A DNA stretch of 10,187 nt. Origin: a virus. Taxonomy: Monodnaviria; Loebvirae; Hofneiviricota; Faserviricetes; Tubulavirales. How positions within the stretch are numbered: position 1 is the first letter of the stretch; the number at the start of each line of letters is the position of its first letter. Where the stretch lies: IMG/VR virus record IMGVR_UViG_2667527591_000022; one strand, given 5' to 3'. Shown piece after piece: positions 1 through 10,187 of the stretch. Made by a program: the position numbers and the translations under genes. The notes under the pieces were generated by a model. It did no database searches. It was not told where the DNA came from and saw only the letters and a program-made list of their open reading frames with translations.

Positions 1-41
1 TGCCCACGCAAGGTCGCCGTGGCTGATCCCCCTCGCGCGGT

Positions 42-1367
<1,326 letters not shown>

Positions 1368-1380
1368 AGTGTCCTCTGTC

Positions 1381-2595
<1,215 letters not shown>

Positions 2596-2608: not shown

Positions 2609-2968
2609 TTACTTGCCAACATTAAGCCCATTTGATTTAAATAAATCATAAACCAATCGATACACTCTATCCTTATAAAGATATATGTATGAAATAAATT
2701 GAACATGGAGGATGATATTAAAGCAGTACTGAATATTTAAAGGCAGGTAACTGAATGCAACTACAATAACATCGAGTTTATTAACATCGGAGATTTGACG
2801 AATAATAAAATTGACGGCAGATACAAGAGCATAATATGAAGTGTAGCAAAGACCAAGATAAGAAAGGAGCTTAGCCCATGCAACAGCTTTATCACCGATA
2901 ACTCCTGCAATGAAACGTAGTGATTTTAAAACAACATCAACAAAAAAAGCACCTAAAATGGCCCACAT
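2609..2968 (-). CDS. pVI-like minor virion protein (hydrophobic, 119 aa)
   Basis: Size and hydrophobicity match Ff gene VI (112 aa); sits between the pIII-like gene and pI; its ATG overlaps the pIII stop (TGATG); GAGGT Shine-Dalgarno 9 nt upstream. Confidence 0.55.
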   Translation of the reverse strand: MWAILGAFFVDVVLKSLRFIAGVIGDKAVAWAKLLSYLGLCYTSYYALVSAVNFIIRQISDVNKLDVIVVAFSYLPLNIQYCFNIILHVQFISYIYLYKDRVYRLVYDLFKSNGLNVGK

Positions 2969-4323
2969 CAGAGTTTTACCTCACGTTCAAATAATGTACG
3001 GCGAGAAATAACAAAAACGCGTAACATGGTTATCATATAAATAGCATATTCAAGAACAGAACGAACATAATCGTCATAAGCTTTTGCAAAATGGCTTGTA
3101 TCAATCTTGAAATTAATAGCGCCAATCAACGGAAGATCAAAGCTAAATTGTAAAATAAAAGGAAGAGCAGTTCCATTATTTGTATTTACCAGTTTGTCAA
3201 TATTAACTGTAAGCCAATTGTTATTATCATGACTCTCACTTCCCTGTCCTGGCAAGTAATGCGAAAGCTCCCCTAAAGGGAAATCCCCATCAGGCAAAGA
3301 AGAAGCTATATTCTGACTAATATCTTTAATACCATTGTCCAGTGAATTTAATGCATTATTCATATCAGCCTGAGAAACAGAAAAAGCATTATTTAAATCA
3401 TTCACTGACACCCATATTGTTTTTAACCAGCCCAAAATACCATCAAGCCAGCCATTGTCATCGCCGGATGAGCCACCGGATCCTGAACCTGAACTACCGC
3501 TACCGGATGAACCGCCGGAGCCCGAGCCGGAGCCACCGCTACCGGATGAACCACCGGAGCCAGAACCTGAACCACCACTGCCGGATGAGCCGCCGGAACC
3601 CGAGCCGGAGCCACCGCTACCGGATGAACCACCGGAGCCAGAACCTGAACCACCACCGGAACTGCCGCCGCCTGGGTTACCACCACCGGAACTGCCACCA
3701 CCTGAGCTACCGCCATCCTCCTTACCATCGGAGAATGCAGGATCTACAGCAACTGGTTTCCAGTCGGCAGTACAAACTGTATCATCATCGGGATTACAAA
3801 TAAGAGGATTACCGGTTGCCTCATAAATACACCCCTGCACATTAACATAACGGGTCCCGTCATCACCTTTATAAACATCAGAAAAAGTCATACCATCAAG
3901 AACCGGACGAGAAAGACAAATCTCGTCAGTTGGCGGCTTATTATATTCAGGTGTCAAATCCCCCTCACCACCCTGAAAAGCAAGGGTGCAGGCTGTCCAC
4001 TTTTGCTTGTCTGAATCCCAGACTTTATATGCTGACCACCGGGCACGGACAAAAGACCCGACAGTCGAAGGTGCATTAACAGGCGTTGAAAGTGGCACAC
4101 CACAATAATGAATTATTCCGGAACATGCGTCATAACTGCCCGAACCACAGAAAAGATGACCGGCCGCCCTGGCTAATTTAATCGACGTCCCCGCGTCCGA
4201 ATAATCTGTCCTGCAGGATGAATGGCCTGCACACTGAACAAGTGCATCCGGATTTTCTTTCTCTTCAGCGAAAGAAAACGAGGAAAAGAACAAAAACAGA
4301 AGCGGAATAATAAAGTGAATCAA
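2968..4323 (-). CDS. pIII-like adsorption / minor coat protein with Gly-Ser-rich linker
   Basis: Hydrophobic signal peptide, Cys-containing N-terminal domains, long (G/S)n linker, C-terminal hydrophobic anchor. The ORF track begins at a GTG (4332) that overlaps the AGGAG Shine-Dalgarno; a TTG at 4323 has 8-nt spacing and is the more plausible start. Confidence 0.75.
   Translation of the reverse strand: MIHFIIPLLFLFFSSFSFAEEKENPDALVQCAGHSSCRTDYSDAGTSIKLARAAGHLFCGSGSYDACSGIIHYCGVPLSTPVNAPSTVGSFVRARWSAYKVWDSDKQKWTACTLAFQGGEGDLTPEYNKPPTDEICLSRPVLDGMTFSDVYKGDDGTRYVNVQGCIYEATGNPLICNPDDDTVCTADWKPVAVDPAFSDGKEDGGSSGGGSSGGGNPGGGSSGGGSGSGSGGSSGSGGSGSGSGGSSGSGGSGSGSGGSSGSGGSGSGSGGSSGSGSSGSGSGGSSGDDNGWLDGILGWLKTIWVSVNDLNNAFSVSQADMNNALNSLDNGIKDISQNIASSLPDGDFPLGELSHYLPGQGSESHDNNNWLTVNIDKLVNTNNGTALPFILQFSFDLPLIGAINFKIDTSHFAKAYDDYVRSVLEYAIYMITMLRVFVISRRTLFEREVKL
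3495..3665. repeat. 39-bp in-frame tandem repeat (about 4.5 copies) encoding the 13-aa Gly/Ser linker unit of the pIII-like protein
   Basis: ccggatga recurs at 3503, 3542, 3581, 3620 (period 39); the protein shows SGSGGSSGSGGSG-type units repeated. Confidence 0.9.
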
Positions 4324-4344
4324 ACAAAACACTCCTGGTATGAT

Positions 4345-5414: not shown

Positions 5415-7562
<2,148 letters not shown>

Positions 7563-7751
7563 ATGAGCAGGAAAAGTATTGGTATAAGCAACGAGAGATA
7601 TCTGAGAATAGAAAGAGCAGCCGTAGATATCACAGCCAAAACAGGAAAAGTCACAAAATGGTCGGAGATCGTGAATTATCTGATAGATGAATATTTAAAC
7701 GATGCAAAACAAGATATGATTTCGAAAAATGAAATTACACAAAAAAAATAG
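7563..7751 (+). CDS. Small DNA-binding regulator, probable ribbon-helix-helix (CopG/Arc/MetJ-like), 62 aa
   Basis: ATG with AGGAG 8 nt upstream; N-terminal beta-strand-like KSIGIS, then the RHH-typical segment GKVTKWSEIVNYLIDEYL; divergent from Rep, as for inovirus repressors. Confidence 0.55.
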   Translation: MSRKSIGISNERYLRIERAAVDITAKTGKVTKWSEIVNYLIDEYLNDAKQDMISKNEITQKK

Positions 7752-8002
7752 TAATCACAAAACGATTTGGCGATTGCTAGAAGAGCAAAAAGTACCACCC
7801 GTGGTACAAAAGTGCAGTATTACATGATTGCTAAAAAGCAATATGCAGACAACCAGTGACTTAATTCTTGACCTGCTGATAAAGCATTTTGTTGTTGGCA
7901 GCATCACAGGCATGACAATATTCAGCCTGATAACGCTTGTCCTACCGTTGGTGATGACCATACACAACAAACTAAGTAAGGACACTGAAATCCTTTAAGG
8001 TT

Positions 8003-8098
8003 CAGTGCGCACAATGACGTTATGTATAAAAAGGCCGCTGCGGTGGAGAGTATCGCAGCGGCCTTTTCAACATAACGCGTGTCACATTATGCGCACTG
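8003..8098. other. Imperfect 96-bp inverted repeat whose arms resemble the XerC and XerD half-sites of dif; candidate folded attP(+) site
   Basis: Left arm aGTGCGCAcAA-tgacg-TTATGTataaa (8004-8030) against dif GGTGCGCATAA-TGTATA-TTATGTTAAAT; right arm in inverse orientation ttcAACATAA-cgcgtgtcaca-TTATGCGCACt (8065-8097). 8003-8016 pairs with 8085-8098 (13/14) and ttatgt (8020-8025) with acataa (8070-8075), leaving a bulge in the central region. Confidence 0.5.
8029..8067. terminator. Bidirectional rho-independent terminator
   Basis: Perfect 14-bp stem aaaaggccgctgcg / cgcagcggcctttt with 11-nt loop; A-run upstream and T-run downstream, so it reads as stem plus U-tract on both strands; downstream of the secretin on the minus strand and of the regulator on the plus strand. 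Confidence 0.55.
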
Positions 8099-8150
8099 AC
8101 GTTGTGGTAGGTAAACTGAGATGCCGCGTCCTGATAATCCCGGTCGGCAC

Positions 8151-9368
<1,218 letters not shown>

Positions 9369-9397
9369 TTAAGTGCTGTTTTTCAGTCATGAAGATA

Positions 9398-10077
<680 letters not shown>

Positions 10078-10187
10078 ACTTCGATCCTCCTCTTTCCAGC
10101 CTTGTTGCAACTAAATAGTATGGCTGTGTTTTGAGCAAAATGCGGTCCAGGATCAATTCTTCACGCCGAATTAACAAAATTTACATT

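Follow-up and report, generated by a model that had tools for sequence, protein, structure and literature searches.

Positions 8002-8099 of the DNA analysed here very probably constitute the attP(+) site of an integrase-less E. coli filamentous phage that uses the host proteins XerC and XerD. The window (the whole stretch of DNA that was analysed, 10,187 nt) is the draft contig CCCK01002538.1 (assembly GCA_000944435.1), reverse-complemented in full, and it carries a filamentous-phage genome with nearly all of its genes on the minus strand. A preliminary description had read the region as a CTXphi-style folded site, and this reading is supported by the junctions of prophages at dif and by homology to the att region of the phages CUS-1 and Ypfphi. 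The evidence likewise supports classification as a CTX-type folded attachment site of the CUS-1/Ypfphi family, residing on a different phage backbone that encodes a P2 gpA-type Rep. The att module itself is already known; what is new is the backbone that carries it, and the novelty is small.

The site consists of two dif-like sites in inverted orientation, with a G+C-rich hairpin between them, as had been described at the outset. An inverted-repeat search returned three nested repeats, at 8002-8016/8085-8099 (15 nt, 93%), 8018-8031/8064-8077 (14 nt, 86%) and 8029-8042/8054-8067 (14 nt, 100%), the last of which is the hairpin. The window contains the motif GTGCGCAYAA just twice, at 8005-8014 on the plus strand and at 8087-8096 on the minus strand, against an expected count of 0.10, and at least two occurrences were obtained in 3 of 200 shuffles. 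Read on the minus strand, the 5' arm has the order AGTGCGCATAA - TGTGACACGCG - TTATGTTGAAA, and the opposite arm reads AGTGCGCACAA - TGACG - TTATGTATAAA, giving inverted XerC/XerD site pairs at 8004-8030 (+) and 8065-8097 (-). The parts of the site are as follows.

8087..8097, minus strand: XerC-binding arm (assigned by sequence), AGTGCGCATAA; 10/11 against E. coli dif, and the arm at which the junctions of relatives lie
8076..8086, minus strand: 11-nt central region of the top arm, TGTGACACGCG; its middle 6 nt bulge out in the predicted fold
8065..8075, minus strand: XerD-binding arm (assigned by sequence), TTATGTTGAAA; 9/11 against dif
8029..8067, no strand assigned: G+C-rich hairpin closing the fold, with a 14-bp perfect stem and an 11-nt loop
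8020..8030, plus strand: arm complementary to the XerD arm, TTATGTATAAA, which pairs with it in the folded strand
8015..8019, plus strand: spacer TGACG, 5 nt, opposite the 11-nt central region, with 2+2 (or 2+3) bp around the bulge
8004..8014, plus strand: arm complementary to the XerC arm, AGTGCGCACAA, with one T.G wobble on the phage (+) strand

With E. coli dif (GGTGCGCATAA TGTATA TTATGTTAAAT) as the reference, the comparison with the host site bears out the proposed likeness, the XerC arm matching at 10 of 11 positions and the XerD arm at 9 of 11. The XerC arm and the bulged central region of the preliminary description therefore stand, but its XerD arm, given there as a partial TTATGT, is more complete than had been thought. 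The central region has its first TGT in common with the TGTATA of dif and nothing in common with it on the XerD side, and the XerC exchange point is predicted from the sequence to lie between 8087 and 8086.

When positions 7998-8103 were folded as single-stranded DNA, the plus strand gave -36.8 kcal/mol (z = -7.9) and the minus strand -40.2 kcal/mol (z = -10.3), and none of 200 shuffles folded as well on either strand. In the predicted minus-strand fold, the outer part is an 11-bp XerC duplex with one T.G wobble, followed by two closing pairs, and the inner part comprises a bulge of 6-7 nt, 2-3 pairs, the XerD duplex and the 14-bp G+C-rich hairpin. A single stem with XerC arm, bulge and XerD arm is thus predicted for this strand, in agreement with the fold that had been proposed.

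The site lies between a small plus-strand ORF and the secretin gene, and the phage genes of the window are arranged as follows.

1381-2592, minus strand: Zot/pI gene
2968-4332, minus strand: pIII-like coat protein gene
5415..7514, minus strand: Rep, a rolling-circle initiator of the P2 gpA type, 699 aa (Pfam Phage_GPA, E = 9e-49; phrog_91, 'nicking at origin')
7563..7751, plus strand: 62-aa ORF, divergent from rep and placed like rstR in CTXphi (phrog_2503)
7828..7998, plus strand: 56-aa hydrophobic ORF, whose stop lies 5 nt ahead of the site
8151..9359, minus strand: secretin (pIV-like) gene (Pfam Secretin, E = 9e-25), whose 3' end is 54 nt away from the site

No integrase or transposase domain was detected by Pfam in the 10 largest ORFs of the window. 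Searches of Pfam and PHROGs assigned a function to neither of the two small ORFs adjoining the site, and the 56-aa ORF had no family match; the 62-aa ORF is a candidate repressor. Rfam gave no match in the window at gathering thresholds, and in a megablast search of the window against a phage collection the 43-nt terminase tip was the sole match. The packaged (+) strand of filamentous phages has the sense of the structural-gene mRNA, and from this together with the orientation of the genes and of Rep, we infer that the window minus strand is the packaged (+) strand. Two sets of short repeats were also seen in the phage genes. At 7486-7520, where rep starts and faces the divergent 62-aa ORF, lie 2.2 copies of a 16-nt unit, TGCACAAATGCAATTG, which may be an operator or an iteron. 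Repeats of 39/78 nt and 15/30 nt lie at 3464-3715 within the pIII-like gene, and are reminiscent of the repeated flexible linkers in the pIII proteins of filamentous phages.

The most direct evidence comes from relatives that are integrated at dif. In E. coli strain 100416 (L001), two tandem copies of a 98.5% identical prophage occupy the interval from the ydeQ/ydeR fimbrial genes to hipA, which is the dif locus of this strain. At the left junction, ATTTAACATAATATACA/TTATGCGCACTGATG (the slash marks the joint), the XerD arm and central region come from the host and the XerC arm from the phage; the dif regenerated here differs from canonical dif only in the outer base contributed by the phage and is functional-looking in sequence. 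The junction between the two prophage copies is the same intact site as in the window, and at the right end the complete hairpin is followed by TTATGCGCACC/AACATAAACC, where the XerC-arm base and flank are those of the host. In another strain, a draft contig (L010) contains the junction ...CAGTGCGCATAA/TGTATATTATGTTAAAT, and the IMG/VR prophage loci L020 and L023 have junctions of the right-end type. Relatives at dif with junctions inside the region, for which the preliminary description had suggested a search, thus exist, and their crossover lies at the XerC-arm/central-region border: such insertion is seen in relatives 98-100% identical to the window phage (L001/L007, L010, L020 and L023), and the window copy itself is not at dif. 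From these junction sequences, the crossover maps to the XerC arm plus TGT, in line with XerC cleaving where the arm meets the central region. The same outcome, with dif regenerated on one side and tandem arrays, has been described for CTXphi and Ypfphi (PMC3442271, PMC4266046). One base of the hairpin stem also differs in the relative of strain 100416, where position 13376 of L001 (window 8034) carries a G-to-A change (GGCCGC to GACCGC), turning the pair into a G.T wobble on the phage (+) strand and into a C.A mismatch on the other.

Over 92 nt, the site shares 84% identity with the right (hipA-proximal) end of the CUS-1 prophage in UTI89, and the att region of Y. pestis Ypfphi is identical to that of CUS-1. 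Ypfphi and CUS-1 are both placed among the CTXphi-class members in a review table (PMC4246890), and the encapsidated genome of Ypfphi has been described in a review as having a potential inverted XerC/XerD site pair, which may act like the CTXphi site (PMC4266046). CUS-1 (E. coli O18:K1:H7) and Ypfphi have the layout of the window site, with XerC arm, 11-nt/5-nt central region, XerD arm and GGCCGCTGCG hairpin, and share with the window phage type the insertion at dif, the regeneration of dif and the tandem arrays (PMC4266046 and the prophage junctions above). The bulge and loop sequences differ, as does the 3' arm, which is GTGCGCAC in the window and GTTCGCAC in CUS-1/Ypfphi, the window form removing a G.A mismatch in the XerC stem. 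Beyond the att region, which is the only part of the CUS-1 and window phage DNA that aligns, the two phages are distinct; the secretins are 40-55% identical, and the Rep of CUS-1 is a 350-aa protein of the II/X family, in contrast to the 699-aa P2 gpA-type Rep of the window phage.

The CTXphi site recombines as a folded (+) single strand (PMC3442271). The attP(+) of CTXphi in V. cholerae is, like the window site, an inverted dif-like pair that folds into a XerC arm, a bulged centre and a XerD arm (PMC3442271); in both sites the central region begins with TGTG, the XerD arm is TTATGTTGA and the exchange is on the XerC side, and both phage types are without an integrase and have prophages in tandem arrays (PMC3442271). 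Read from GQ466611, the CTXphi site comprises AGTGCGTATTA, a 12-nt spacer, TTATGTTGAGG, about 85 nt of hairpins and the complementary arm with a 7-nt spacer. The window site differs in its spacers, which are 11/5 nt instead of 12/7 nt, and in the DNA between the arms, a single 41-nt hairpin in place of the ~85-nt forked double hairpin of CTXphi. The host dif is that of E. coli, and the window site is known from its sequence, the fold prediction and the junctions of relatives. VGJphi-type and TLCphi-type elements are also inserted at dif by the host XerCD, as proposed for the window phage. Sites of the VGJ type are single duplexes with a canonical spacer and reversible integration, and those of the TLC type need the phage factor XafT and use XerD first (PMC4246890, PMC6744903). 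The window site resembles neither type: a VGJ-type site is one duplex with a 6-7 bp centre, whereas the duplex spacers in the window are 11 (10 in some relatives) and 5 nt, and, in contrast to the TLC type with its degenerate XerD arm, the XerD arm of the window matches at 9/11 and no XafT (DUF3653) was found in the scanned ORFs.

Natural variants of the site were retrieved with a 17-nt pattern from the 3' arm, which matched 41 viral contigs and nine Enterobacterales genomes (Yersinia, Phytobacter, Photorhabdus, Kluyvera, Scandinavium, Citrobacter, Cedecea, Erwinia and Dryocola); about half of the 17-mer matches from the genome collection fell by chance in unrelated phyla and were dropped. Citrobacter, Cedecea, Erwinia and Dryocola contain part of the module, shortened or rearranged. 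Across 25 distinct full-length variants, GTGCGCATAA-TGT and CG-TTATGTTGAA are almost constant, with single substitutions in one or two rows, and the conservation of the 3' arm is there by construction, as this arm was set by the retrieval pattern. Between TGT and CG, which are themselves invariant, 5-6 nt are free in both sequence and length, the central region being 10-11 nt long, and in the XerD arm of the aligned variants one row is substituted within the 11 nt and one just outside. Cells that are paired in the stem make up 94.9% across 21 variants, compared with 28-53% when the partners were slid, and pair 11-89 in the XerC stem is U.G in all 21. Covariation is weak, most stem pairs being constant; there is one clean compensatory change within a helix (A-T to T-A at pair 35-70, in the hairpin stem), and the outermost 'compensatory' pairs are confounded by the host-derived bases of integrated copies. 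Two stem pairs are always T.G or G.T and two more are often so, and because these wobbles are A.C mismatches on the opposite strand, the phage (+) strand fold is more stable than its complement in 24 of the 25 variants, by a mean of 2.8 kcal/mol, the variants being related and thus not amounting to 24 independent observations. Established Xer sites (dif, cer and psi) have spacers of 6-8 bp, and since duplex spacers of 10-11 and 5 nt fall outside this range, the variant pattern fits a folded-strand substrate better than a duplex, although it is not proof. The natural variants serve as a free mutational scan of a CTX-type site, in which the arms, TGT and the two closing pairs are fixed and the bulge is free, and this pattern could guide XerCD experiments in E. 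coli.

Fragments related to these sites were encountered as well. In Dryocola (L072) and Erwinia mallotivora (L071), the sequence TTCGCACAATGACGTTATGCGCACC places the 3' arm directly on the XerC arm, without hairpin or XerD arms, and looks like a scar left by deletion or recombination of such a site, by host DNA resembling the dif flank. The plasmid pMS20659 (L006, 4001-4069) holds the left arm and hairpin of a CUS-1-type site without the XerC top arm. The same left arm and hairpin occur in 484 plasmid places, downstream of a truncated gene of the STM4504/CBY_0614 family on many large E. coli plasmids, and look like a fossil fragment of a CUS-1-like phage end; in pMS20659, a dif-like site with 3 mismatches lies 1.6 kb from the fragment.

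In the proposed mechanism, the inverted dif-like sequences of the packaged (+) strand would anneal, nucleated by the G+C-rich hairpin, and the resulting stem would offer a XerC-binding duplex, a mostly unpaired centre (11 nt opposite 5 nt) and a XerD-binding duplex. XerC would swap one strand with chromosomal dif at the border between the XerC arm and the central region, and the common TGT would stabilise the exchanged strand; as the remaining central region is non-homologous, XerD would be unable to complete the reaction, and replication would turn the intermediate into a prophage. This prophage would have the regenerated dif on its secretin side and the whole hairpin on its regulator side, and re-insertion into the regenerated dif would lead to tandem arrays, every internal junction of which would rebuild an intact-looking site. 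The use of single-stranded DNA, catalysis by XerC and resolution by replication are putative steps, and the tandem dimer at dif is consistent with the proposed single-stranded substrate, XerC-only catalysis, replicative resolution and irreversible integration.

The ends of the window lie outside this site, in and beyond an array of 339-bp repeats.

1..41, no strand assigned: contig tip, 41 nt, identical to the interior of a P2-like (P88-type) terminase gene
42..1367, no strand assigned: 3.9 tandem copies of the 339-bp unit, between zot and the contig end and outside the attachment site
9395..10000, no strand assigned: about 1.8 more copies of the 339-bp unit, next to the start of the secretin gene
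10001..10187, no strand assigned: contig tip, 187 nt, the 5' part of bssR with its upstream region

Both tips meet the repeat array with 1-2 nt of microhomology, without target duplication and at different repeat phases, and the contig ends in unique sequence after just 41 and 187 nt. The gene bssR is flanked by yliI and rimO, and the loci of the two tips were not neighbours in the genomes inspected. P2-like prophages are present in 1069 of 5426 genomes, at many positions, and in one genome inspected the P2-like terminase gene lies 11 kb within a prophage at yecA/tyrP. The terminase-phage-bssR arrangement was found in none of the complete E. coli genomes, the one genome of 5426 that covers at least 80% of the window being a dif-integrated dimer, and the joint between the repeat and bssR had no match in the species-representative genomes. 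In a sister assembly (the tail of L011), the array is joined to fadR-like sequence about 20 nt off the phase of the left joint of the window, and another assembly contains a wrap-around phage contig that is longer than one genome and without host DNA.

The window copy is probably abundant episomal or tandem phage DNA, the assembly of which broke at the repeats and the ends of which were extended by chimeric reads. Replicative forms and internal tandem junctions both contain the site intact between stretches of phage DNA, so that the apparent paradox of an intact but seemingly unused site largely dissolves. The claim that this copy had not been inserted through the site thus holds in that the site is intact and flanked by phage on both sides, but the boundaries in the repeats, to which the claim also appealed, are contig-end joints to unlinked fragments and probably not biology; the alternative offered with it, an episomal or tandem form, agrees with the junction of the strain 100416 dimer and with a replicative form. 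In genome annotation, such a site found intact and internal should be read as the mark of a tandem prophage or an episome, and not as an unused site.

Other readings of the site and of the window copy were weighed against this account. It is very unlikely that the site works as double-stranded DNA in the manner of VGJphi, with XerCD acting on one duplex dif-like site of the replicative form and with the second copy and the hairpin incidental, the latter for example as a terminator. The two arms, at 10/11 and 9/11, are good dif matches, and a duplex reaction at the minus-strand site would leave the same junctions in relatives, which therefore cannot tell a single-stranded from a double-stranded substrate; however, duplex spacers of 11 (10 in some relatives) and 5 nt stand against the 6-8 bp of established Xer sites, the interior of the spacer is free in sequence and length while the fold-pairing bases TG...CG are kept, and the wobbles favour the packaged strand in 24 of the 25 (related) variants. 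The homologous CTXphi plan, with spacers of 12/7 nt, moreover recombines as folded (+) single-stranded DNA (PMC3442271). It is hardly credible that the palindrome is merely a bidirectional terminator, placed where the regulator-side ORFs and the secretin operon converge, its likeness to dif arising by chance: a 14-bp G+C-rich stem with T-runs on both sides, between convergent ORFs, would suit such a role, but the joints between prophage and host at dif fall within the palindrome, which already contradicts it, and the dif-like arms, which are not part of the G+C-rich stem, are kept across genera. A simple terminator scan also left the hairpin (stem 14 bp) unflagged, because of its 11-nt loop and short T-runs (4-5 nt). 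With the palindrome taken as an XerCD attachment site, the hairpin at 8029..8067, which sits between convergent transcription units, may double as a bidirectional terminator, transcription termination being a second role.

For the window copy, it is unlikely that a real Xer-free chromosomal insertion took place, in which phage DNA broken in the array was joined by microhomology between a P2-like terminase and bssR, with the intervening chromosome replaced or rearranged. Microhomology-only joints are not the product of a de Bruijn mis-join and need either chimeric reads or real illegitimate recombination, and the 1-2 nt at both joints are typical of illegitimate end-joining and not of k-mer mis-joins; the second assembly, in which fadR-like sequence adjoins the array about 20 nt out of phase with the left joint, also speaks for such an insertion. 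Several observations speak against it. In the genomes inspected, the loci from which the two flanks derive are unlinked; the tips extend for no more than 41 and 187 nt before the contig breaks off within unique sequence; and the two ends, which show no target duplication, fall at different repeat phases. Moreover, the arrangement is found in no complete E. coli genome (5426), the joint is absent from the species-representative genomes, and three host partners in one series of drafts are what is expected of library chimeras of an abundant episome. The joints in the array are thus more likely assembly or library chimeras than real alternative integration, and because of this the implied anomaly of repeat-borne boundaries is weak. 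It is decidedly unlikely that the joints to bssR, the P2-like terminase and fadR-like sequence are all real and that a Xer-using phage also enters by Xer-independent microhomology joining; if they were, breakage would be preferential in an amplified, ColE1 origin-like repeat array.

Further candidates for the origin of the joints were rejected. A P2-like prophage as the neighbour of bssR was set aside, weakly and from one genome, as the terminase lies 11 kb inside the prophage at yecA/tyrP. Insertion by Rep, through rolling-circle nicking within the repeat, was rejected on the grounds that three joints lie at three unit positions, the window ends being 164-175 nt out of phase. IS110-type transposition was rejected since the window phage is without a transposase and the IS110 sister elements end beside rep and secretin, not in the repeats.

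The 339-bp unit has a G+C content of 59%, compared with about 45-50% for the phage. Matches at about 80-90% to its positions 220-322 occur in thousands of small mobilizable plasmids resembling ColE1, and this part presumably resembles the primosome-assembly (single-strand initiation) region of ColE1/pBR322; the unit may be the complementary-strand origin of the phage. The full unit is present in only 9 complete E. coli genomes, and in three genomes inspected (L001, L012 and L055) it lies between the secretin and zot genes of related phages, in numbers from about one copy (strain 100416) to several.

The CUS-1/Ypfphi-type folded attachment site is now seen on a second E. coli filamentous-phage backbone, unrelated to the first, and its occurrence on both implies that the att module travels from phage to phage as a cassette. 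Sister phages that share the Rep, coat, Zot and secretin genes are without the att/regulator module and have instead an IS110-family (RNA-guided) transposase next to rep (L002, 15390-16355; L012, 28058-29011; L055, 22078-23040), and lysogeny modules appear to be swapped among these phages. The IS110 sister phages reside at varied loci (ybiB/hcxB, yhbO/yraR and within a TolC-family gene), and up to about 24 matches to the repeat unit were counted in one genome.
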